Source: Candidatus Peribacteria bacterium
GTDB taxonomy: Bacteria; Patescibacteriota; Gracilibacteria; Peribacterales; Peribacteraceae
Reading direction: 5' to 3'
Assembly (NCBI GenBank): GCA_023245865.1
Contig: JAHFJN010000001.1
Span: 263,649-327,648, forward strand
DNA: 64,000 nt
How positions within the stretch are numbered: the first letter of the stretch is position 1; every line of letters starts with the position of its first letter. Shown here piece after piece: positions 3,148 through 54,138 of the stretch. Under the pieces are notes generated by a model. That model worked only from the letters and a program-made list of their open reading frames with translations, searched no databases and was not told the DNA's origin. Made by a program: the position numbers and the translations under genes.

Positions 3148-4350
3148 GTGTATCGTATACGCATGCACAGCAACATTTGGAAACTCAATTGCATTGCCGG
3201 TTCCATCGGGAGTGTCATATTCATTTCCGTCGTTGTGCCCTTTTGGCAAAGCAATGGCCTGACATTGCACCAGATTTTTTTACTGCAGAGCGCGTTCGGT
3301 TTTGCTCTCGTTCTGTCGCAGATTCCTACCGGATATCTTTCTGATGTGTGGGGGCGAAAAAATGTCATCGTTACGGGCATGTTTCTTCTGCTGCTCAGCA
3401 TGGTCGCTCAGGCAATGTCTTGGACTTTCTCGGGATTTCTTGTCGCTGAGGCGCTTCGTGGCTTTGGCCTGAGCTTTCTTTCCGGTACGGTGGAAGCAAT
3501 GCTCTACGAGAGCATGCATACTACGCCCGGTCAGCGAACGTATCGTGATCTGATAGGGAGTCAAATGTTCTTACGCTACGGGTTTGAGGCGATCACATCT
3601 GTCTTTGGCGGCTTTCTTGCAGTCTATGGACTGCGGATACCCGTGGTTGCGAGTATCGCACCGTTTGCATTTGGTTTTGTCGTTGCACTTTCCCTCAAAG
3701 AACTTCCCTTGAGAGCTCGCATCAAACAAGCTCACAGCAAGGCAATCGTAAATGTTTTTCGGTATACGCTTTTTCGACACGGCGAGATCCGCAGCATCAT
3801 GCTTCTTCACTCCACAGTGTCCGCATCGACACTTCTTATCTTCTGGTTTACGCAGCCATACCAATCTCTTGTCGGGCTTCCATTGGGTTTGTTTGGTATC
3901 ACGTATGCCACTATTGTCGGCTTCGGAGCCGTTGCCTCACGCTACGTTCACGTGCTTGAGAAACATGTCAGCGATAAGGCGTTGCTGTGTATCATCTGCG
4001 GCATGGTTGCGGGAAGTTACCTCTTCCTTGGCTCCGTTCTTTCCTGGTGGGGTCTCGTGTTCTTTCTGGTCGCGCGCATTGCGTACGGACTTATTTCTCC
4101 GCTCACGAACGATGTTTTGAATCGAATGACGCCGGCACACATGCGGGCAACCGCGCTTTCTCTTCGTTCCTCGATCACGAGTTTGCTCTTCGCATGTCTT
4201 TCTCCCATTGCAGGGTATCTCACCGACGCCTACACATTAAATCAAGCTATTTTTATTACGGGGTGCGGCATTACCGCTCTGCTCCTACTCCAGTTATTTT
4301 CAATGCGTCAATCTTTTCTCTCATCGAGTACTGTTAGAGTTCGTACATGA
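3148..4350 (+). CDS. MFS-type transporter
   Basis: 400 aa with about 12 hydrophobic segments and the MFS loop motif GYLSDVWGRKNV. Listed start is GTG 3148; ATG 3163 is an alternative. Confidence 0.75.
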   Translation: MYRIRMHSNIWKLNCIAGSIGSVIFISVVVPFWQSNGLTLHQIFLLQSAFGFALVLSQIPTGYLSDVWGRKNVIVTGMFLLLLSMVAQAMSWTFSGFLVAEALRGFGLSFLSGTVEAMLYESMHTTPGQRTYRDLIGSQMFLRYGFEAITSVFGGFLAVYGLRIPVVASIAPFAFGFVVALSLKELPLRARIKQAHSKAIVNVFRYTLFRHGEIRSIMLLHSTVSASTLLIFWFTQPYQSLVGLPLGLFGITYATIVGFGAVASRYVHVLEKHVSDKALLCIICGMVAGSYLFLGSVLSWWGLVFFLVARIAYGLISPLTNDVLNRMTPAHMRATALSLRSSITSLLFACLSPIAGYLTDAYTLNQAIFITGCGITALLLLQLFSMRQSFLSSSTVRVRT

Positions 4351-4670
4351 AAAAATTAAAGATCTCCGTCATCGGCGTTTCATTGCTCGTCCCGTTTCTC
4401 GTACAGGCACATCCGGGTCTTGTTGATAAAAATGGTTGCCATGTATGTACGAGGGCTTGTGAGGACCGCTACCATGTAAAAGAGGGTGCATATCATTGTC
4501 ACGTCGGAGACGATCGCATGAAGAGTTATACGTATGAAGAGATGAAGGCTATGAAAGGCGAAACTCCGAACACCAGTTCCGCACCTGCCGTGATGAAATC
4601 AAGCAAGAAGTCAGCAGCATCTGTCGCGACTGTGGAGAGGGCAAAGAAAGGAAACAAGCCAAGGAAATAG
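4347..4670 (+). CDS. Small secreted Cys/His-rich protein, possibly metal-binding
   Basis: 107 aa. Signal peptide MKKLKISVIGVSLLVPFLVQA, then NGCHVCTRACEDRYHVKEGAYHCHVGDD. ATG 4347-4349 overlaps the TGA 4348-4350 of the MFS gene. Confidence 0.6.
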   Translation: MKKLKISVIGVSLLVPFLVQAHPGLVDKNGCHVCTRACEDRYHVKEGAYHCHVGDDRMKSYTYEEMKAMKGETPNTSSAPAVMKSSKKSAASVATVERAKKGNKPRK

Positions 4671-4723: not shown

Positions 4724-6364
<1,641 letters not shown>

Positions 6365-8545: not shown

Positions 8546-9841
8546 TCAGCCGACCCATTCCTTGTGTGTGAACAGGTCGAGCAGGTGGAGCTGCAGTGTG
8601 AGTGCTGCGATGCAGTAGACGGAAAATACAATACAGGCAACGTATTTCGTACGTCCTTCAAGATTCGACTCTGTAAGTCTGTGCGAGACGATGATTGCAA
8701 GCAGAATAAAAACAGGGAGGCAGTAGCGAGACATGCTCCGAAAACCGAGAGAGGAAACTGCCGACGCCTGCAGGTAAAAAAGAATGATAGCGAGGGACAG
8801 GAGCCCATACCGTACCTCGATAAATTTAATAGCTGTGTCACACTGAGTGTTCGGCATCTTCCGTCCCTCGATACTATTTTGCTTTGCAAAATCACTCGGG
8901 ATGACACAGGAAGATGCCGAACGTATCGAAGTGCGGTGTAACATCGCAAGAGAAAGTAACACAAGAATCCAGAACATCAGCGTGGTGATGTTTGCACTCA
9001 CTTGATTCGGGTCCAGAAGGTGCTGGCCGAATGTTGGAAGAAAATGAAAACCGTCATGAAGCGGAAACAGATAATCCGGTACCACGAGCCACCCCACTCT
9101 TTGAATTTTGAGATAGAAATCCCAGTACCCGAATATGAAATGCAGATACGTAAAAAATACTACCACTCCCATCATCGATGCTATGGTAACGAGAATGCGT
9201 CGTTGTATCAGTGCATAGAGACTCACAACCAGTCCGAGGATTCTTGTAAGAGACATAGCAAAACCATGAAGTCCGGCAAGTATGCAAGCATATTTCGATT
9301 CGCAGTTGCACCAGTACAAAAATCCCATCATGAAAAAGAGAAACAGTGATTCCGAGTATCCCGTAACCAGAAAAAACGTCGATGGATAGACGATGATCGA
9401 AAGTATGCACAGCTGTCGCATTCGTTTTGAAACTCGTAATTGATTCAGAAATAGTTGCAAGTAGATCCAGAATCCCACACAGAATGCTTGCGAAACAAGA
9501 AGCATCGCAGTGCGAAATGGTATTCCGATCATTCGGTGGAAGAAGTGAACAAGGAGCGGATACGCAGGAAGGAAAGCGATGTTCGTCAATTGCTGAAATT
9601 TGTCTTGATCAATATCCTTCCAATCGTCTCTGTCGCGAGGGAGATTGCTGAAGTATCCCTTCTCTGCAATTCCTTGGTACCACACACTGTCGAATGCATT
9701 GAGATGCTCGTACGACACGATGGGAGATCGCTGACCTTGTACCAAAATGGCAAGGAGGATTTGGATGAATGTGATTCCGCATGCAATGGCGAAGATTCGC
9801 ATAAAGCCAGTTTCGCATACAAGCTGAATCCTTGCTATCAT
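8546..9841 (-). CDS. Polytopic membrane protein, PIG-V-like mannosyltransferase candidate
   Basis: ORF 8546-9880. I trimmed the start to ATG 9841 (MIARIQL..) because the longer form overlaps tRNA-Leu. It has a DSVWYQGIAEKGY motif and about 10 TM segments. ATG 9802 is also possible. Confidence 0.7.
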   Translation of the reverse strand: MIARIQLVCETGFMRIFAIACGITFIQILLAILVQGQRSPIVSYEHLNAFDSVWYQGIAEKGYFSNLPRDRDDWKDIDQDKFQQLTNIAFLPAYPLLVHFFHRMIGIPFRTAMLLVSQAFCVGFWIYLQLFLNQLRVSKRMRQLCILSIIVYPSTFFLVTGYSESLFLFFMMGFLYWCNCESKYACILAGLHGFAMSLTRILGLVVSLYALIQRRILVTIASMMGVVVFFTYLHFIFGYWDFYLKIQRVGWLVVPDYLFPLHDGFHFLPTFGQHLLDPNQVSANITTLMFWILVLLSLAMLHRTSIRSASSCVIPSDFAKQNSIEGRKMPNTQCDTAIKFIEVRYGLLSLAIILFYLQASAVSSLGFRSMSRYCLPVFILLAIIVSHRLTESNLEGRTKYVACIVFSVYCIAALTLQLHLLDLFTHKEWVG

Positions 9842-9850
9842 CTGTGTAGT

Positions 9851-9937
9851 GCCGATGTGGCGGAATTGGTAGACGCGCACGCTTCAGGAGCGTGTATCCG
9901 CAAGGATGTGAGAGTTCGAGTCTCTCCATCGGCACCA
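9851..9937 (+). tRNA. tRNA-Leu (anticodon CAG), class II, CCA encoded
   Basis: GCCGATG acceptor pairs with CATCGGC. Anticodon arm is CACGC-TTCAGGA-GCGTG, with a long variable arm TATCCGCAAGGATGT and T arm GAGAG-TTCGAGT-CTCTC, then ACCA. Confidence 0.9.
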
Positions 9938-9978
9938 GTATGGAGAGACGAGAAGCCTGTGGTGAGCTTGACGAACCA

Positions 9979-9997
9979 AGTCTCTCCATCGGCACCA
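9979..9997 (+). repeat. Exact 19-nt direct copy of the tRNA-Leu 3' end
   Basis: AGTCTCTCCATCGGCACCA occurs at 9919-9937 (tRNA 3' end) and again at 9979-9997. Confidence 0.85.
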
Positions 9998-10017
9998 TGT
10001 GATGTATACTGTTCACG

Positions 10018-12039
10018 ATGAAGCGCATCTCCTTATCACGGTCCAGCGAATGGGTTGTTCTCCTCCTCATTGCATTTTCCATACTCTGGCGCGGTGGCAA
10101 AGGGATCGAATCCACACTGTTGCTTGCACTCGTCGCTGGCTTTGTGACACTCATCTACAGTGCTCGCAAGATTCTGCGGATCAGGCATCGTTTGCCTGAC
10201 GGAGTACGGACCGGCCTGCCCAAGAGTAATGCCCAAGTACCACTTTCTCTTTGGGGGGTAGCGTTTCTCTTTGTTCTCTGGACGCTTCTTAGTTGGATTT
10301 TTTCTGATACCCGCAACTACGGACTCGATGAGGTAATCCGCGATGCGTCGTTGCTCCTTCTTTTTTTATGGATCGTTCGTGCAGGGGTTGATGGCATGCA
10401 GGGTGCGCTTTTTGATCGTTTCGTTCGATTCGTAGCGTACGGTGCGATTTCCTCCTCCATTGTCGGACTCTTTGTCTACATGCTGCAGCCTGCAAACCGG
10501 TTCGTCGGAACATTTTTTTACATATTCTCCCATGCTGACTACTGGCCCAACGCTTGGGCAGAGTTTGTCCTCCTCAGCTGGCCGTTTGTACTCATTGCCT
10601 ACATCAGAGAACAACGCACAAGGGTGAAGAGGTTGCTTCTTTGTGGCTTCACACTGCTTCTTACCTCCTTGCTTCTTAGCTACTCAAGAGGGGGTTTACT
10701 GGTCTTCTGCGTTCAGATGCTTCTGGGGGTCGGCTTTCTTATCACCCTTGCTCTTCATGATGTTCGGTTTCGCCGTACACTTCGCATGCAGCGCAGTCGT
10801 ACTGTCATTTGTTTCCTGGCGATTACCGCGTCTGCTTTCCTCCTTGCAGGCTGTATCAATGTTGTTCGCTCAACTTTGTACACAGTTCAATCTGCTCAAG
10901 AAAAGATTACATTCACCGCCGCCGAGGGTACATCGTCCATTCAGGAACGGATCCAATTTTGGAAGCAAGCGCTGACCCTTTCTTTCCATCATCCGCTTCT
11001 TGGATATGGCCCCTATAGTTTTCGATTTGAACAGCCTTGGCTTGCAGAAGGTGTGCTGCAGACATCGGATCATCCCCATAACGTTCTGCTGAAGCTTGCC
11101 ATGGAGCGTGGCTGGCCTGCCGTGTTCCTTTTCGTGTTGCTGATCGCAGCTGTCCTATGGAAATCTTTGCTTGCCTACCGCCGTGATGCGGCGTCCATCC
11201 TCATGATGATTTCTGTGCTCGGAGTACTTCTGCACAACTTGATTGATTACAATCTCCAATTTGTCGCCATTGCGTTACCGTTCTGGCTCTCGCTCGGGTT
11301 TCTTGTCGTTCCGGAATCCTCAGAGCAATCGATCGTTACATCATTCGGTAAATGGAAAAGAGCACAGTATCTATCCTACGTAAAAATTCTCGCAGCAATA
11401 GTCATTCTATGCGTGACTGGATTCGAATCGATCAGCCTTGCATCGACTGCACTTGCACGTAGTTTAATAGCACGGGGAGAACTATCGCGTTCATTGTACT
11501 GGTACGGTTTTTCCGATCACACTCTTTTTGGTAGAGATATCTATCTGAAAGAAGCTGAATTGTCTCTGCAACGTAGTAAGCTCATCGATGCCCAGGAATT
11601 TCTGTCGTCGTATCGTCAGCAAAACTCAGTCGATTATCGTTTCTGGAAGCTGCAGGGAGTCCTTCAGTTTCGTCAGGGCGACATTGTAGCTGCGAAGGAT
11701 TCACTCAAGAGAGCGTTCGAGATCGGAAAGTACATGGATCTCGATATCCTGCACCTCGTCCTCAGTACGGCAAAGACAGAACAGGACCGACAACAGCTTC
11801 TTCCCGGTAAAATGATCTATGATGCTGTTTTTTCGGATTTCTCTGATGCCATTCTTCATAATACTCACTATGTTTCCCTTTCGCAGAATCCTGAGTACCT
11901 CATGGCGGTTTCGAGAGATCTCGGTAAGCTCTTTCCGTCTGACGCGAAGCGTTACACTGTCATTGCCAGAAAGGCCTACAACGAGGCTTCCATACTGCGA
12001 AAAAATGCCGCAGCGCAGGGCACCGGGTTTCTTTGGTAA
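10018..12039 (+). CDS. O-antigen ligase/polymerase-like (Wzy_C-type) membrane protein with a soluble helical-repeat C-terminal domain
   Basis: 673 aa, many TM segments, SYSRGGLL and DHPHNVLLKLAMERGW motifs typical of the O-antigen ligase family. The C-terminal ~200 aa are TPR-like. Confidence 0.8.
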   Translation: MKRISLSRSSEWVVLLLIAFSILWRGGKGIESTLLLALVAGFVTLIYSARKILRIRHRLPDGVRTGLPKSNAQVPLSLWGVAFLFVLWTLLSWIFSDTRNYGLDEVIRDASLLLLFLWIVRAGVDGMQGALFDRFVRFVAYGAISSSIVGLFVYMLQPANRFVGTFFYIFSHADYWPNAWAEFVLLSWPFVLIAYIREQRTRVKRLLLCGFTLLLTSLLLSYSRGGLLVFCVQMLLGVGFLITLALHDVRFRRTLRMQRSRTVICFLAITASAFLLAGCINVVRSTLYTVQSAQEKITFTAAEGTSSIQERIQFWKQALTLSFHHPLLGYGPYSFRFEQPWLAEGVLQTSDHPHNVLLKLAMERGWPAVFLFVLLIAAVLWKSLLAYRRDAASILMMISVLGVLLHNLIDYNLQFVAIALPFWLSLGFLVVPESSEQSIVTSFGKWKRAQYLSYVKILAAIVILCVTGFESISLASTALARSLIARGELSRSLYWYGFSDHTLFGRDIYLKEAELSLQRSKLIDAQEFLSSYRQQNSVDYRFWKLQGVLQFRQGDIVAAKDSLKRAFEIGKYMDLDILHLVLSTAKTEQDRQQLLPGKMIYDAVFSDFSDAILHNTHYVSLSQNPEYLMAVSRDLGKLFPSDAKRYTVIARKAYNEASILRKNAAAQGTGFLW

Positions 12040-21090: not shown

Positions 21091-21166
21091 TGGTGGGCCA
21101 GGCGGGACTTGAACCCGCGACCAATTGCTTAAGAGGCAACTGCTCTACCAACTGAGCTACTGACCC
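21091..21166 (-). tRNA. tRNA-Lys (anticodon CTT), CCA encoded
   Basis: Reverse complement: GGGTCAG TA GCTC AGTTGGTA GAGC A GTTGC CTCTTAA GCAAT TGGTC GCGGG TTCAAGT CCCGC CTGGCCC ACCA. Confidence 0.9.
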
Positions 21167-21244
21167 GTGATTCGAGAGACCGACTGTAAAGGGTGAACAA
21201 CCGAGCTGCAATGATTTATTACGCCATCGCAAGCGATGGCTAGG

Positions 21245-21262
21245 CAACTGAGCTACTGACCC
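21245..21262 (-). repeat. Exact 18-nt copy of the tRNA-Lys 5' end (nt 1-18), 96 nt upstream of the gene
   Basis: CAACTGAGCTACTGACCC occurs at 21149-21166 (in the tRNA) and at 21245-21262. In the tRNA sense it is followed by hairpin GCCATCG-CTTG-CGATGGC (21223-21240). Confidence 0.85.
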
Positions 21263-38095: not shown

Positions 38096-38210
38096 AGGTG
38101 GATATTTTAACTGTTGTAGTATTTTTGTCAAGTGCAGTGCAGAGCTGGAGGGGCTTGAACCAGTGAGTATGCAAAGTCGCACGAAGTGTGCAGACTCGTT
38201 CAAGGTGCAT

Positions 38211-38232
38211 CAAAAAAGCGCCAAGTGGCGCT
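38211..38232 (-). terminator. Rho-independent terminator (minus strand)
   Basis: Minus strand reads AGCGCC-ACTT-GGCGCT followed by TTTTTT (plus strand AAAAAAGCGCCAAGTGGCGCT). Confidence 0.55.
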
Positions 38233-38365
38233 TTCTGATCAAACTGATCAAAGTGTGCATAGTTGTCATTGGCTGCGCTACGTGATCGTGCGCAGGGACG
38301 TAAAGCGACTGCGTCGCTACGTCCCACGTAAAATAGCTGCTCGCTTCGCTGTGCGCGATTTTACG

Positions 38366-38395
38366 TGGTGGAGCTGTAGGGATCAATTTCGAACT
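38366..38395 (-). repeat. tRNA 3'-end-like repeat, copy B
   Basis: TGGTGGAGCTGTAGGGATCAATTTCGAACT. The first 11 nt are identical to tRNA-Ala 40104-40114. The last 25 nt are identical to copy C. Confidence 0.7.
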
Positions 38396-38541
38396 CGACA
38401 GGCCTACAAAAGTGGATCCGCTTGAACGGTCAGAAAAGCTCATCGGGCTGAGGAATTCTCTGGATTTTGTAAAAAATATTCTCAAGAGTGCAGAAGCCAT
38501 GAAATGTACTCTTACGCTATGAAATGTTGTGGGTCGTCAAT

Positions 38542-38566
38542 GAGCTGTAGGGATCAATTTCGAACT
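38542..38566 (-). repeat. tRNA 3'-end-like repeat, copy C
   Basis: GAGCTGTAGGGATCAATTTCGAACT, 25/25 identical to 38371-38395. Confidence 0.7.
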
Positions 38567-38599
38567 TTTTGATCCACAGGTTAAGAGTAAGATTGAGGT

Positions 38600-47334: not shown

Positions 47335-48696
47335 ATGCCCGTTGATCAATCAATCATCGATGCAACTCTTCGGTCCCCGTACGGTGAGCAAGCTTATCTG
47401 ATCGTGGAGAAGCTTATGGATGCGGGCTTTGATGCGTGGTGGGTGGGAGGAGCCGTGCGCGACATGCTTCTTGGTACTATTCCCCATGACATCGATATTG
47501 CAACCGACGCCGAGCCTGACGAAATTGTCGATCTTTTCTCAAAGGTGGATACAAGGTCAAAGCTGCTCGGAAGCTTGCGCATTGCGATGAAAAAGTTCAG
47601 TTTCGAAGTGACGACGTTTCGCGAAGATGATGAAGCATCCGACGGCCGCCATCCTGAGTCGATTGCATTCAGCACGCGTGAGAAAGATGCACACAGGCGA
47701 GATTTCACCATCAATACGCTCTATTTTAATCCGATCAGTCGGGGTCTGTACGATCCGTTTGGCGGAGAGGCGGATTTGAAGGAAAAATTGATTCGATTCA
47801 TAGGAATTGCGGGCATTCGCATACAGCATGACGCACTACGGATGCTGCGCGCCGTGCGATTTCGCGCCCTGCTCAATGGACAATATCACCCGGAAACGTA
47901 CGCAGCGCTCCGGGAGCTGGCTCCGATGGTCGAGACTCTCTCCGGCAGCAGGCAACTGGAAGAGCTTCAAAAAATGCTGCTTGGGCCTCACCCCGATCGC
48001 GCACTCAATGACTTGTGGGAACTGTCGATTCTGCAGTACTTCCTGCCGGAACTCGCCGCATGCAAAGGCATTGCGCAACCGGCAGATTACCATCACGAGG
48101 GCGATGTCTGGGAGCATATGCTGCACATTGTTCGTGCGTTTCGTAAGGAGGATGGTATAGACATCAGAATCGCTGCACTCTTTCATGATTGTGGAAAGGT
48201 ACAAACGTTTTCCCTGCAAGAGCGCATCCGCTTTGACCATCATGCGAGTGTGTCATCAGAGAATGCGAGAGTTGCCCTCACTCGACTGCAAATGCCCGCC
48301 GGACGCATTGAGAAAATTTGTTGGCTGATCATGCACCATATGATGATGGGATCATTCTCAGAAATGAATGATACGCGCAAAGCTCACTGGTATTACCATC
48401 CATGGTTTGCAGAGCTTCTACAACTGTTCTGGTTGGATATCGCAGGGACAACACCTCAAGACTTTTCCTTGTACGACAGCATTGTAAAGGACTATCAACA
48501 CTTTCTTGATTCTCATCCGCGACCACAGAGACCGCTGCTCACGGGAGAGGAAGTCATGACACTTGCCGGCATCCGTCCGGGCGAAAAAGTAGGGGAGATT
48601 CTCCTGTCACTGCACACTGCTCAATTGGAAAAGAAAATCACAAGTAAAAAAGAGGCGGAGGAATTCGTTCAAAGCTTGGTGCAGGGACGCAGTTGA
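47335..48696 (+). CDS. cca: CCA-adding tRNA nucleotidyltransferase with HD domain
   Basis: 453 aa: WVGGAVRDMLLG..HDIDIAT, RRDFTINTL, and HD region YHHEGDVWEH..LFHDCGK. Confidence 0.88.
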   Translation: MPVDQSIIDATLRSPYGEQAYLIVEKLMDAGFDAWWVGGAVRDMLLGTIPHDIDIATDAEPDEIVDLFSKVDTRSKLLGSLRIAMKKFSFEVTTFREDDEASDGRHPESIAFSTREKDAHRRDFTINTLYFNPISRGLYDPFGGEADLKEKLIRFIGIAGIRIQHDALRMLRAVRFRALLNGQYHPETYAALRELAPMVETLSGSRQLEELQKMLLGPHPDRALNDLWELSILQYFLPELAACKGIAQPADYHHEGDVWEHMLHIVRAFRKEDGIDIRIAALFHDCGKVQTFSLQERIRFDHHASVSSENARVALTRLQMPAGRIEKICWLIMHHMMMGSFSEMNDTRKAHWYYHPWFAELLQLFWLDIAGTTPQDFSLYDSIVKDYQHFLDSHPRPQRPLLTGEEVMTLAGIRPGEKVGEILLSLHTAQLEKKITSKKEAEEFVQSLVQGRS

Positions 48697-50705
48697 ATGA
48701 GTGCAACATGGCCGAGGAGCGTGATCGACTGCGTGTCACCGGATTTGCGAAGGTCCAAACTGATCTTTTTACGCTCATCATCGACATTGGGCGACATGGC
48801 ATGTCGCAGTCCCCAGGTTAGGCGCGTATCGAGGCTTGCTGTTCCAGCAAAGAGAACACCTTCCGGTGTCGCAAAACCAGTATTCCACAAACGGACATGA
48901 TGACGTGACCGAGGGGAACCGGAGATACTTGCGTATTCAAAGGAAAAATCCTGTGGGAAGGAACGATAAAAAACCGGTGAGACAGGTGCGGACGGAGGAA
49001 ACTCTTCCGAAAGAAATGCCGCGATGGAAATTTTAAGGAGTGAGGGAAAGGAAATACTGTCCGCTCTGTTCCATCGGGCATCCTCAAACGCATGAAGCAA
49101 ACATTGTTCATTTGCGACGATGAGGATGTTCACCGGCTGTCGTTTTCTGCCGAGCAGAGTCTCTGTGAATTCCGGCAATACGCCATCAGTAAAAAGATGA
49201 GGGATCGCCTTCGTTTCAGTCATCTGATTTTCGGCTGTCGCTACTACCCCGTTGAAATGAACAGGGAAAACAGTGAGGAAAAGAATCAAAAAAAGAACTT
49301 CAGCAAGAATAGTTGTGATAACCAATCCCCAAAGATTCTTTCCATAAGCTGGCACCAGCCGTGATTGTTCACGCAACCACTCTCCAATACTGATGGCGAA
49401 GAGAAGGCTCATAAATCCCACAAGGTTGCCTGCAAGTACATCGCTTACATAGTGCACGCCAAGATACAGTCGGCTGAAATCCACCAAAACAATGATGGAA
49501 AGTGCCATAAAAAATGCCGAAACTCTTGATCGCCAGGAGGACTGTGTACGAATAATGACGTATGCGAGGAAGCCATAGAACGAAACGACAATCGTTGCGT
49601 GCGCACTGGGAAACGAATAGCCGTGCTCCTCAATGGCAGGCAAGAGTCCCGATGGGCGCAGGCGGTGAAACACAATTTTGCATATCAATGTAATAATTCC
49701 ACTGGAAAGAAGCGCGACCCAGAGGGTGATAACAAACGATCGTAATCGATGGTGCAAGAAGAAAAGTGAAAGAAGAAGAGAAAGAACAATAACGATAGAC
49801 CATTCTCCGAGCATGGTTATGAAGTAAAAAATTTTCAGAAGCAGGCCTGTGCGGAACGCAAGCAACAAATTTTCAAATCTGACATCGATAAGCGTCAATT
49901 GATCGCCATGGAGAAAGTCTTCCGTAATGCCGAGGAATATTGCAATAATGACCAGCATAACGCCCACAAGAAACGTCAGAGGGAGCCCGTTGAATTTTCT
50001 TGTCGCAAATCTTTGAGCGACTGCCGAGCCAAACGTCGGGTACCGTTTCCCTACAGCATCAGTGATCGGCCGAATACACTGCAATGTGTCGTTCAGAACA
50101 ATTTTTCCGTTGATGATGGCCCATCGCCAGAGCAAGAGAAATACTGAGACAGTCGCAAAACCAAGGACGCAGAGAAGTAGCAACCTGGACGACAGAAGCA
50201 ACGCAACTCTCCAGGCGGCTCCGAATACGTAGCCGATGCCGATGTAAAATACAGACCACGCAGTGGCACTGATACTATCCATACTATAAAAAAGAGTCCG
50301 CGACATCCCAGCAACACCCGCTAAAAACGGCATGATGGGCCGTGTAGGACCAATGAAGCGACCAAGGAAGATGCTTTTGCGCTGGTGACGCTGAAAAAAC
50401 GGACGTGCGCGGTCGATGTGTTTTTTGAGAAATGACCAACGCTCGAGATGCATCTGCCCTCTGCGACCGATCTCATAGCTGATACCGTCACCAAATATTG
50501 CGCCAACGGATGAAAACAGACAAAGCAGCCAGAAATGGTAGTATCCATGAACGGCAAAACCGCCCATGAGGACAATCACGATGGTTCCCGGTATGAATGT
50601 GCCCGTAAAAACGAGTGATTCCGCCAAGGAGATAAGAAACACAAGCCAGTATCCTATGAGTCCCAAGTGCTGCAGGTCCGCCAAGAAAGAGGGAAGGGAT
50701 TCCAT
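48669..50705 (-). CDS. Three-module membrane protein: DedA-like + PAP2 phosphatase + LssY_C-like C-terminal domain
   Basis: 678 aa. N-terminal DedA-type helices (LAESLVFTGTFIPG). PAP2 motifs KIVFHRLRP..SFPSAH..SRLYLGVHYVSD. The C-terminal soluble domain ends ..RHHVRLW..GTASLD. Confidence 0.8.
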   Translation of the reverse strand: MESLPSFLADLQHLGLIGYWLVFLISLAESLVFTGTFIPGTIVIVLMGGFAVHGYYHFWLLCLFSSVGAIFGDGISYEIGRRGQMHLERWSFLKKHIDRARPFFQRHQRKSIFLGRFIGPTRPIMPFLAGVAGMSRTLFYSMDSISATAWSVFYIGIGYVFGAAWRVALLLSSRLLLLCVLGFATVSVFLLLWRWAIINGKIVLNDTLQCIRPITDAVGKRYPTFGSAVAQRFATRKFNGLPLTFLVGVMLVIIAIFLGITEDFLHGDQLTLIDVRFENLLLAFRTGLLLKIFYFITMLGEWSIVIVLSLLLSLFFLHHRLRSFVITLWVALLSSGIITLICKIVFHRLRPSGLLPAIEEHGYSFPSAHATIVVSFYGFLAYVIIRTQSSWRSRVSAFFMALSIIVLVDFSRLYLGVHYVSDVLAGNLVGFMSLLFAISIGEWLREQSRLVPAYGKNLWGLVITTILAEVLFLILFLTVFPVHFNGVVATAENQMTETKAIPHLFTDGVLPEFTETLLGRKRQPVNILIVANEQCLLHAFEDARWNRADSISFPSLLKISIAAFLSEEFPPSAPVSPVFYRSFPQDFSFEYASISGSPRSRHHVRLWNTGFATPEGVLFAGTASLDTRLTWGLRHAMSPNVDDERKKISLDLRKSGDTQSITLLGHVALIQLRPCTKL

Positions 50706-50745
50706 GAAACCATTGTACGCTATGAGCGTTGCAGTACAATTTCTG

Positions 50746-50764
50746 CGGGCGCGTAGCTCAGTTG
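50746..50764 (+). repeat. Exact 19-nt copy of the tRNA-Ile 5' end (nt 1-19), 96 nt upstream of the gene
   Basis: GGGCGCGTAGCTCAGTTGG occurs at 50746-50764 and 50842-50860. It is followed by hairpin GTATC-GCCTTGGA-GATAC (50770-50787) and AGCTCTGACCAAC (50812-50824). The latter is the reverse complement of D-arm 50856-50868. Confidence 0.85.
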
Positions 50765-50841
50765 GGTCGAGTATCGCCTTGGAGATACGAGCATTATAAA
50801 AAAGCGCGAAGCAGCTCTGACCAACGGTGGTATAGTTGTCA

Positions 50842-50918
50842 TGGGCGCGTAGCTCAGTTGGTCAGAGCTCCGGACTTATAAACCGGCGGTCGATGGTTCA
50901 AATCCATCCGCGCCCACC
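50842..50918 (+). tRNA. tRNA-Ile (anticodon TAT), CCA encoded
   Basis: GGGCGCG TA GCTC AGTTGGTCA GAGC T CCGGA CTTATAA ACCGG CGGTC GATGG TTCAAAT CCATC CGCGCCC ACCA. Anticodon positions 34-36 are TAT. Positions 31 and 39 are A and A. Confidence 0.85.
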
Positions 50919-50919
50919 A

Positions 50920-51372
50920 CTAAGAAGCCTTCTCCGCCTCCACTATGACTGTGAGCGGCAACATCTGTTCACCCATTTTTACACGAACCTGATGGGATCC
51001 TGTCACTTTGATCGGCTCAGCGATTTCAATGGCAGACTCCTCCACTGTAATGGAATGCTCCTTCTTCAGAGCATCAGCAATCAATTTCTCCTGTATGGCT
51101 GCATAGAGTTTGCCGGTTTTCGTCACTTTACGAACGAAGGTAACAGTCTTTCCTTGGAGTGCCTGCGCCGCTCCGGCTTCTGCGGCCTTCTCGCGCTCGC
51201 GCTCCTCCGCACGCCTGCGAATGAGGTCTGCATAGCGCTTTCGCACAAGTGGTGTTGCCACGAGAGCGGCCCGTTTTGGGAGCAGGCAATTGAGCGCATA
51301 ACCATCACCGACGACGAGCAAGTCGTTTTTCTTTCCGATGCCCTTGATATCTTCCAGTAATAATATTTCCAT
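50920..51372 (-). CDS. rplI: Ribosomal protein L9
   Basis: 150 aa: MEILLLEDIKGIGKKNDLLVVGDGYALNCLLPKRAA. Confidence 0.9.
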   Translation of the reverse strand: MEILLLEDIKGIGKKNDLLVVGDGYALNCLLPKRAALVATPLVRKRYADLIRRRAEEREREKAAEAGAAQALQGKTVTFVRKVTKTGKLYAAIQEKLIADALKKEHSITVEESAIEIAEPIKVTGSHQVRVKMGEQMLPLTVIVEAEKAS

Positions 51373-53963: not shown

Positions 53964-53982
53964 GGGCGCCTAGCTCAGTTGG
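53964..53982 (+). repeat. Exact 19-nt copy of the tRNA-Val 5' end (nt 1-19), 98 nt upstream of the gene
   Basis: GGGCGCCTAGCTCAGTTGG occurs at 53964-53982 and 54062-54080. It is followed by hairpin GAGTGTTC-ACTTGA-GAACAC(G)ACTC (53986-54010) and GCTCTAACCAA (54024-54034). The latter is the reverse complement of D-arm 54077-54087. Confidence 0.85.
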
Positions 53983-54061
53983 ATGGAGTGTTCACTTGAG
54001 AACACGACTCTATAAAGATAAACGCTCTAACCAAATTTTGTTGTATACTTTGCAGCAGCAA

Positions 54062-54138
54062 GGGCGCCTAGCTCAGTTGGTTAGAGCATCTCGTTTACAC
54101 CGAGAGGGTCAGGGGTTCGAATCCCTTGGCGCCCACCA
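54062..54138 (+). tRNA. tRNA-Val (anticodon TAC), CCA encoded
   Basis: GGGCGCC TA GCTC AGTTGGTTA GAGC A TCTCG TTTACAC CGAGA GGGTC AGGGG TTCGAAT CCCTT GGCGCCC ACCA. Confidence 0.9.

Follow-up and report, generated by a model that had tools for sequence, protein, structure and literature searches.

Why would a bacterium carry, less than 100 nucleotides (nt) upstream of an intact tRNA gene, an exact copy of the first 19 nt of that same gene? The question is raised by the tRNA-Ile gene in a 64-kb stretch of DNA (hereafter the window) from Candidatus Peribacteraceae/Peregrinibacteria, a bacterium of the Candidate Phyla Radiation (CPR). Between the copy and the gene lie a hairpin, an A-rich linker and a segment antisense to the D-arm of the tRNA (anti-D). 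An earlier note on this DNA had called the copy a 5'-mimic element. Our analysis does not support a conserved regulatory mimic of tRNA-Ile: the 19-nt copy, here called the stub, is a real but dispensable product of a local tRNA-gene rearrangement, and its function is only putative. The best single explanation, which can be held only tentatively, is that the rearrangement gave birth to a leader module acting at the RNA level through a strand-swapped fold.

A copied 5' end and an antisense segment precede tRNA-Ile

When the 19-mer was searched for in the whole window with up to two mismatches, four matches were obtained, namely the tRNA-Ile pair and a second pair at tRNA-Val, and shuffled sequences gave 0.00 matches. 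The 13-nt anti-D, with one mismatch allowed, was matched 0.07 times in shuffled sequences, and no shuffle gave two matches. Exact local direct repeats of at least 16 nt number five in the window, four of them situated at the ends of tRNA genes. Since independent assemblies from three samples are 100% identical in this region, an assembly artefact is excluded; assemblies of the species show no strain variation here. We conclude that the arrangement upstream of tRNA-Ile is not due to chance. The features that the earlier note had described near this gene all exist, each of them lying 1 nt higher than the position given there, as judged from ARAGORN, Rfam and the sequence itself (Table 1).

Apart from the 19-mer and the anti-D, the tRNA-Ile module has several structural peculiarities. 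Its GAGT is able to close a D-stem-like helix with the GCTC of the stub, and the base of its hairpin contains tandem G.A/A.G. The anti-D, a perfect complement of the true D-arm, pairs with the D region of the stub at 10 of 13 positions only, two of these being G.U. The promoter-like candidate before the stub (P1 in Table 1) overlaps a 7-bp inverted repeat, ATTGTAC/GTACAAT. At the other end, tRNA-Ile runs directly into the stop codon (50920-50922) of L9, a convergent gene.

Contigs of the same organism in Logan stop inside tRNA-Ile (50878; L003) and inside tRNA-Val (54110; L002 and L213), which suggests that the short repeats at these two genes break short-read assembly graphs.

The same layout recurs at other tRNA genes

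The 5' layout seen at tRNA-Ile is found on three of the eight tRNAs visible in this genome, those for Ile, Val and Lys, always in the order stub (nt 1-19), 4-5 nt, 7-bp hairpin with a CTTG loop, A-rich stretch, antisense segment and tRNA. That the Ile and Val elements are of one kind, as had been claimed before, was confirmed by the alignment of their spacers, which are homologous (z=5.3) and about 60% identical. The same plan is followed upstream of a tRNA-Gly gene in L197, a metagenomic contig from an AT-rich bacterium, with 99 nt from start to start and a spacer of 78-81 nt; the Lys and L197 spacers have no significant similarity to the others. At tRNA-Lys, the antisense segment faces nt 1-19 of the tRNA with 12 Watson-Crick and 5 G.U pairs. 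Across the four elements, six of the seven hairpin pairs have compensatory changes in both partners, and the CTTG loop does not vary; the observed covariation score was reached by none of 500 shuffles, in a sample of four sequences of which one had been chosen for its CTTG. A motif GTTGG-NNN-GAGT...ACGA(G/C) is common to the Ile element, the Val element and the Val element of a relative, L231, that is described below.

In a set of 51 tRNAs chosen without regard to the pattern, the highest agreement of upstream sequence with nt 1-19 is distributed bimodally: 18-19 of 19 positions agree in five, all at -92 to -98, and at most 12 of 19 in the others, decayed intermediate stubs being found at none of the 51. 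A scan for CTTG-loop hairpins gave no further copies away from tRNAs. In a pattern scan of metagenomes, at least 122 matches were listed, of which 110 were tandem tRNAs of the usual sort and 12 were various types of partial 5' copy; a viral scan gave tandem tRNAs only. Two CPR contigs, L007 and L072, both with tRNA-Pro, carry stubs of 30-35 nt at -92 and -97. Rfam reported only tRNAs for the window region and for contigs L145, L169, L194 and L197, both at gathering thresholds and in E-value mode, and full-text searches of the literature turned up no description of such elements. The module family thus appears to be undescribed in Rfam and in the literature searched.

The regular spacing brings to mind a decayed tandem tRNA duplicate, in which about 96 nt from start to start would represent one tRNA plus a spacer of some 20 nt. 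Tandem tRNA genes do have the spacing of 92-99 nt seen here, and the upstream partial copies in two metagenomic contigs (L107 and L146) retain T-arm remnants. The window elements, however, have no trace of a T-arm, apart from the antisense segment their spacers do not significantly resemble the remainder of the tRNA, whether read directly or inverted, and Rfam finds no tRNA in 50747-50842; moreover, 19 perfect bases followed by random-like sequence are unlike the decay of a pseudogene. For the window elements, the sequences largely refute a decayed tandem copy, which we regard as very improbable.

Table 1. Positions of the modules and their parts; coordinates refer to the window
Locus	Feature	Position	Strand	Basis or remark
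tRNA-Ile	tRNA-Ile(UAU), CCA encoded	50843-50919	+	ARAGORN and Rfam, 72.2 bits; start-to-start 96 nt, spacer 77 nt
tRNA-Ile	5' stub GGGCGCGTAGCTCAGTTGG, exact tRNA-Ile nt 1-19	50747-50765, again 50843-50861	+	Spacing 96
tRNA-Ile	GAGT, 7-bp hairpin GTATCGC-CTTG-GAGATAC (50771-50788), then ACGAG	50769-50791	+	
tRNA-Ile	A-rich linker: TATAAA 50795-50800, A6 run 50798-50803	50793-50806		Sequence
tRNA-Ile	Perfect TATAAT facing DedA	50798-50793	-	Sequence
tRNA-Ile	Anti-D AGCTCTGACCAAC	50813-50825	+	13/13 Watson-Crick complement of tRNA-Ile nt 15-27 (50857-50869)
tRNA-Ile	P2, extended -10 TGGTATAGT (TGG+TATAGT)	50828-50836	+	6 nt, then tRNA +1
tRNA-Ile	P1-like candidate before stub: TTGTAC 50713-50718, 16-nt spacer, TACAAT 50735-50740	50713-50740	+	Sequence; 6 nt to stub
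tRNA-Val	tRNA-Val(UAC)	54062-54138		Start-to-start 98 nt, spacer 79 nt
tRNA-Val	Val module: stub 53964-53982, hairpin 53988-54005, TATAAA 54011-54016, anti-D 54024-54034, TATACT 54044-54049	53964-54061	+	
tRNA-Val	Promoter-like site before stub: TGaTACAGA			Then 5 nt
tRNA-Lys	tRNA-Lys(CUU)	21091-21166	-	Start-to-start 96 nt, spacer 78 nt
tRNA-Lys	Lys module: stub 21262-21244, hairpin GCCATCG-CTTG-CGATGGC 21240-21223, antisense 21209-21191	21167-21262	-	Stub 18/19 identical
tRNA-Lys	Promoter-like site before stub: TTGTGA-17-TATCCT			Conserved in sister
L197 (tRNA-Gly)	Promoter-like site before stub: TTGCAA-17-TATCAT			
L007 (tRNA-Pro)	Promoter-like site before stub: TTGCAA-16-TACAAT			Strong, right after canonical terminator
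tRNA-Leu	tRNA-Leu(CAG) and downstream repeat	9851-9997	+	Mirror image at 3' end (9919-9997): 19-mer AGTCTCTCCATCGGCACCA at 9919-9937 and 9979-9997

Presence and absence of the module at orthologous loci

A genome scan anchored on the neighbouring DedA-PAP2 gene (DedA) yielded few orthologous tRNA loci, because synteny upstream of DedA is not conserved. Relatives were found through the substrate-binding protein (SBP) encoded between tRNA-Val and tRNA-Ile, and they share the gene order S16-KH-pilin-[tRNA-Val]-SecG-SBP-L9-[tRNA-Ile]. In the sister genome L225, whose SBP is 93% identical, L9 is followed by 67 nt, tRNA-Ile, 6 nt and DedA, all on a single strand. The window tRNA-Ile is inverted relative to L225 and also to L226, L227, L228, L230 and L231; the inverted block consists of tRNA-Ile and some 45-65 nt of upstream DNA, and its CCA end now lies at the L9 stop codon. 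The block GGTGGTATAGTT is identical in the window and L225 and keeps its distance from tRNA-Ile +1. The proposal that TGGTATAGT is a promoter starting transcription at tRNA +1 has become credible, and its conservation in the sister identifies it as the ancestral tRNA-Ile promoter. The window anti-D aligns to GTCTCTGCGTATCATA of L225, which is itself not complementary to the D-arm, and its changes form a tight cluster adjoining the perfectly conserved GGTGGTATAGTT.

The earlier note had itself held that absence of the 19-mer and the anti-D from orthologous loci would count against a conserved 5' mimic. Both are absent from tRNA-Ile in each of seven relatives (L225, L226, L227, L228, L230, L231 and L004), and a conserved regulatory role at this gene can no longer be maintained.

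The inversion also bears on the gene next door. The DedA gene of L225 begins 6 nt downstream of tRNA-Ile and lacks its own promoter, whereas that of the window is cut off from any upstream transcription by the inverted tRNA; in view of this loss of its upstream tRNA and promoter, the suggestion that the minus-strand TATAAT serves DedA is plausible. The L225 stretch homologous to the A-rich linker, catgatatgtagag, contains no TATAAT. One could go further and regard the whole element as a post-inversion promoter and 5' untranslated region for DedA (and for SecG at tRNA-Val), composed of the minus-strand TATAAT, the hairpin and the reverse-complemented stub, in which case the leader of the neighbour's mRNA would carry 19 nt antisense to the tRNA. 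The perfect TATAAT would fit such a role, and three of the four D-loop-type elements lie in divergent intergenic regions. Yet at Lys and in L007 the gene upstream of the element runs in the same direction, the minus strand at tRNA-Val lacks a good -10, and the pattern of G.U pairs described below matches the tRNA-sense strand and not the opposite one. We consider a neighbour-gene role quite improbable.

Several side observations were made at this locus. The DedA-PAP2 protein of L225 (gene at 3248-4495) is only 52% identical to that of the window (48669-50705) and is without the LssY_C domain; the relatedness of the two genomes changes sharply exactly at tRNA-Ile, SBP being 93% identical on the other side. 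In L226, a large serine recombinase gene (9176-10836) directly follows tRNA-Ile, and L227 and L228 are near-identical up to tRNA-Ile and have unrelated genes after 9926. The L226 recombinase and the L227/L228 divergence make tRNA-Ile look like a hotspot of integration or recombination in the family. A gene of the CCA-adding enzyme/poly(A) polymerase family (47335-48696, plus strand) adjoins DedA in the window and in every relative examined.

A different history emerges at tRNA-Val. The 45 nt that precede the window Val stub have a nearly exact counterpart in the 45 nt before the true tRNA-Val of L225 (z=14.2), and because the flanks are near-identical, the two genomes differ by exactly the 98 nt between the 19-mers. 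In L225, this flank is joined directly to tRNA +1 and is the only tRNA-Val promoter region that the sister has; the last 27 nt before the window tRNA-Val resemble the tRNA-Val promoter of the outgroup L227. On the simplest history, the Val module would be ancestral to the window/L225 pair and would have been lost from L225 by deletion between the repeats. This agrees with L231 (71% identity), which has an orthologous module and an inverted tRNA-Val: the gene is inverted as in the window, a 19/19 stub stands at -97, the spacer is 78 nt long, and the hairpin has the same flanks (GTTGG-NNN-GAGT...ACGAG). The Val spacers of the window and L231 have diverged to near randomness, and the stubs match at 19/19 in both. 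Each stub tracks its own tRNA: L231 has T7 (T7/A66) and the window C7 (C7/G66), so that the 7/66 pair, which is G/C in Ile, is C/G in the window Val and T/A in that of L231. In L232, tRNA-Val is inverted and has no stub; in L226, L227 and L230 it is neither inverted nor accompanied by a stub. The conserved-element test thus found the Ile module in none of the seven relatives and the Val module in L231 and not in L225, L226, L227, L230 or L232. At tRNA-Lys, the sister contig L229 has kept the upstream flank and a 12-nt stub, with a 70-nt spacer that is unrelated in sequence and carries a hairpin at the same offset.

Such patchy presence among close relatives, the length fixed at 77-79 nt with a conserved internal hairpin, and the occurrence of three or more copies within 84 kb, all of them at one and the same tRNA position, would also be expected of a miniature non-autonomous insertion element. 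It would be about 78 nt long, target D-loop position 18/19-19/20, duplicate 18-19 bp, bring an outward promoter and excise precisely. The Val locus of L225 resembles its exact empty site, although deletion between the repeats explains that site equally well. What is hard to accommodate is the nature of the copies: they are about 60% identical (Ile versus Val) or unrelated (Lys, L197), none is near-identical to another, and inspection of the spacer ends revealed no terminal inverted repeats. Moreover, the Ile 'insert' consists over its 3' 45 nt of DNA orthologous to the native upstream region of tRNA-Ile in L225, the duplication begins every time exactly at tRNA +1, a point that a DNA transposase could not sense, and no transposase was seen nearby. 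We regard an insertion element as unlikely.

A predicted strand-swapped precursor

RNA folding was applied to precursors beginning at the stub for Ile, Val, Lys and L197. In all four, the minimum-free-energy form is strand-swapped: the antisense segment pairs with the 5' region of the true tRNA, and stub nt 1-7 pair with the 3' acceptor strand. The swapped form is better than an enforced cloverleaf by 11.8 (Ile), 7.0 (Val), 2.5 (Lys) and 11.0 (L197) kcal/mol. Sequestration of the D-arm by the anti-D in a transcript started upstream, which the earlier note had envisaged, is therefore also predicted by folding. The antisense segment complements the true tRNA perfectly in Ile (13/13) and Val (11/11) and the stub imperfectly. 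At the positions where stub and antisense depart from Watson-Crick pairing, there are nine G.U, no A.C and seven other mismatches, which fits pairing in the tRNA-sense RNA only. Stub nt 1-14 lie outside the cover of the antisense segment in Ile and Val, and their only obvious partner is the 3' acceptor strand. Judging by the promoter-like sites that precede the stubs (Table 1), transcripts carrying the stub are likely.

The leader module that we tentatively favour would work as follows. The 19-mer would be the first part of an accessory module of about 97 nt that comprises the stub, the D-stem-like GAGT, the stable tetraloop hairpin with G.A pairs on its flanks, the A-rich linker and the ancestral promoter region. 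At tRNA-Ile, this module would have arisen when the block of promoter and tRNA-Ile was inverted in this lineage of Peribacteraceae, the same event having taken place earlier at tRNA-Val. Normal synthesis of tRNA-Ile would proceed from the conserved TGGTATAGT, with a start at or beside +1. Transcripts begun at or upstream of the stub would carry two tRNA 5' strands and one antisense segment; the latter would pair perfectly with the true D-arm, stub nt 1-7 would take the 3' acceptor strand of the tRNA, and the outcome would be a strand-swapped, non-canonical precursor. We infer transcription of the stub, the swap in vivo and any benefit from it; the swap would be what selection sees, in that it would divert upstream-initiated or read-through transcripts in cis and let only promoter-proximal transcripts, or those folded correctly during transcription, mature.

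A broader claim, possible but to be treated with more doubt, is that these modules represent a bacterial pre-tRNA leader family, in which the exact 5'-strand copy lets one transcript choose between two acceptor stems and the antisense segment biases the choice. Such a natural, protein-free cis switch of tRNA maturation would have been made by tRNA-gene inversion and then retained through selection in Peribacteraceae, perhaps also in further CPR bacteria (L007 and L072) and in the unrelated AT-rich bacterium of L197. Should the stub indeed be selected for pairing with the acceptor 3' strand, this would be the first natural precursor that builds its acceptor stem from either of two 5' strands, and a new mode of control of tRNA maturation.

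Leader module or neutral scar

The case for constraint is argued from perfect stubs that follow their own tRNAs, from the conserved length and hairpin, from the lack of decayed stubs and from the streamlined genome. A considerable number of observations weigh on the other side. As described above, the Ile module is absent from all seven relatives, and the Val module is cleanly missing in L225 and L232, which makes it dispensable. Neither the Val element of L231 nor the sister Lys locus has the antisense segment, so that the full three-part switch is not constant, and the idea that the anti-D is a constant part of the family had to be abandoned. The covariation of the stub with its tRNA rests on a single variable position, 7/66. 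The Ile leader by itself is no more stable than shuffled sequence (z=-0.09). A strict sigma-70 consensus scan of 50600-51000 gave no promoter, the -35 of P1 being weak. The module is tied to rearrangement events and, finally, we know of no precedent in bacteria for such a mechanism.

All this lends weight to a neutral scar, which is nearly as likely as the leader module, if in our view doubtful as well. Inversion of the promoter and tRNA, by template switch or fold-back, would have left a direct (stub) and an inverted (anti-D) templated copy, both functionless; that the copies are still perfect would be explained by a recent origin, or else by slippage or quasi-palindrome correction, which could keep short repeats perfect in the absence of function and would go on recopying the selected tRNA. 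The record at tRNA-Ile speaks for such a scar: the gene is inverted only in this genome and has its stub and anti-D only here, the cluster of changes in the anti-D beside the intact GGTGGTATAGTT is typical of templated (quasi-palindrome) mutation, and the 41 nt adjoining DedA contain a near-copy of nearby DedA sequence. The record at tRNA-Val is less favourable, as the module is common to a relative at 71% identity, in which the spacer is saturated and the stubs are nevertheless 19/19 and covarying. Harmless loss of the module in L225 and L232 is easily explained by a scar, as are the partial 5' copies in other lineages (L072, L107, L146 and L194), which resemble plain duplications; the conserved spacer length and hairpin and the lack of decayed stubs are not. 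Gene conversion seems implausible for a 19-nt tract without homology on its 5' side, and the Ile and Val modules are homologous at only about 60% identity, unlike what a very recent event at Ile would leave. Even as scars, the modules would show that single tRNA genes flip within the conserved operon-like strings of tiny CPR genomes, and leave precise, recognizable footprints that are useful for annotation and for reconstructing the mechanisms of rearrangement.

Relation to known systems

Several known systems share features with the module. Like the att repeats of integrated elements at tRNA genes, it places an exact copy of a terminal tRNA segment beside an intact gene, and tRNA-Ile appears to be a recombination hotspot in this family. 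Unlike them, it copies the 5' part of the tRNA (nt 1-19) and not the 3' part that att repeats normally duplicate, its repeats are 77 nt apart and do not flank kilobases of element, and no integrase or recombinase accompanies them, the neighbours being DedA-PAP2, the CCA-adding enzyme and L9; an att origin was rejected, and the sole 3'-type repeat in the window is that of tRNA-Leu. Leader-trailer stems of pre-tRNAs and pre-rRNAs likewise pair the 5' end of a precursor with the 3' region of the mature RNA, and L007 has an 11-bp helix of this kind; the window leader, in contrast, is predicted to compete with the true 5' strand for the acceptor 3' strand and not to extend the stem. The module also recalls the tandem promoters P1 and P2 found in rRNA and tRNA operons, in that a stable RNA gene is preceded by two promoter-like sites some 96 bp from each other, each of them 5-7 nt away from the G that opens the same 19-nt sequence. 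The regions upstream of P1 and P2 are nevertheless dissimilar and do not satisfy the strict consensus; to our knowledge, classical tandem promoters such as those of the E. coli rrn operons do not duplicate the start of the mature RNA.

A further likeness is to the logic of attenuators and riboswitches, in which three segments exclude one another in pairing (1:2 versus 2:3), and to synthetic leaders built as RNase P riboswitches (PMC7897497): the middle, antisense segment can pair with either an upstream copy or a downstream functional sequence, with a choice that would here decide whether the pre-tRNA can be processed. The module differs in having neither a ligand-binding domain nor a terminator, and natural attenuators and riboswitches control mRNAs, not tRNA maturation; the tRNA example of an RNase P riboswitch leader described in the source cited is an engineered one (PMC7897497).

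A number of other identities were considered and rejected. The upstream unit 50747-50842 is not a tRNA (RF00005, at least 29 bits): cmscan of 50650-50950 in E-value mode gives only the true tRNA at 50843-50916, and ARAGORN agrees. An intrinsic terminator is ruled out by the lack of a U tract in GAGCATTATAAAAAAG, which follows the hairpin at 50771-50788, the terminator scan reporting only 50951-50972; a T-box leader, by the lack of an Rfam match and the position upstream of a tRNA gene. A simple tandem duplication of the promoter and 5' end does not account for the arrangement, as the 50 nt before the stub are unlike the 50 nt before the tRNA, and neither does a decayed inverted tRNA arm, since comparison of the leader with the reverse complement of the tRNA gave nothing significant beyond the antisense segment. 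A functional 'swapped' tRNA with the D-arm of the stub is contradicted by the loss of A21 and by C in place of G19 in the Lys and L197 stubs. A remnant of a group I or bulge-helix-bulge intron was considered since the antisense segment spans the end of the stub; there is no catalytic core, the 5' exon would not have U.G at its end, and splicing is not required in a gene that is intact. Finally, a box C/D-like guide was discounted, CTGA being present only in the Ile antisense segment.

Other observations

The tRNA-Leu(CAG) gene of the window offers a mirror image of the module at its 3' end: AGTCTCTCCATCGGCACCA, the last 19 nt of the gene, is repeated 60 nt downstream, and a perfect 10-nt antisense segment, ATGGAGAGAC (9940-9949), lies between the two copies. 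Just after the second copy come a promoter-like TGTATACT and, at 10018, the beginning of the next gene. A further exact direct repeat, the 25-nt GAGCTGTAGGGATCAATTTCGAACT (38371 and 38542), is found in an intergenic region of about 400 nt (38204-38599), together with an 11-bp inverted repeat (38324-38334/38358-38368); this region has no Rfam match and may be an RNA that has escaped annotation or another footprint of rearrangement.

In the metagenomic contigs L145, L169, L193 and L194, a separate family precedes tRNA-Gly(GCC). It consists of a copy of nt 1-36, a conserved CCAAAG... linker and a perfect antisense of 13-17 nt to nt 31-47, and in L194 the unit is tandemly repeated at least twice (231-340 and 427-536). 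In L038 (Candidatus Uhrbacteria), a perfect 13-nt antisense to the anticodon arm (~5094-5106) lies 80 nt upstream of a tRNA with anticodon TGA (5174-5249), without a stub. In L007 (4853-4951), the acceptor stem of tRNA-Pro(GGG) is extended by an 11-nt leader, CCAAAACACAT, and the trailer complementary to it, ATGTGTTTTGG; the predicted fold is very stable (z=-5.9).

The tRNA genes of these bacteria have two further peculiarities. A tRNA-Ile with a UAU anticodon is uncommon in bacteria, in which AUA is usually decoded by a lysidine-modified CAU tRNA; the UAU anticodon is present in the Peribacteraceae of the window, of L004 and of L225-L231. In addition, CCA is encoded in all eight tRNAs visible in this genome, despite the presence of a gene for the CCA-adding enzyme.

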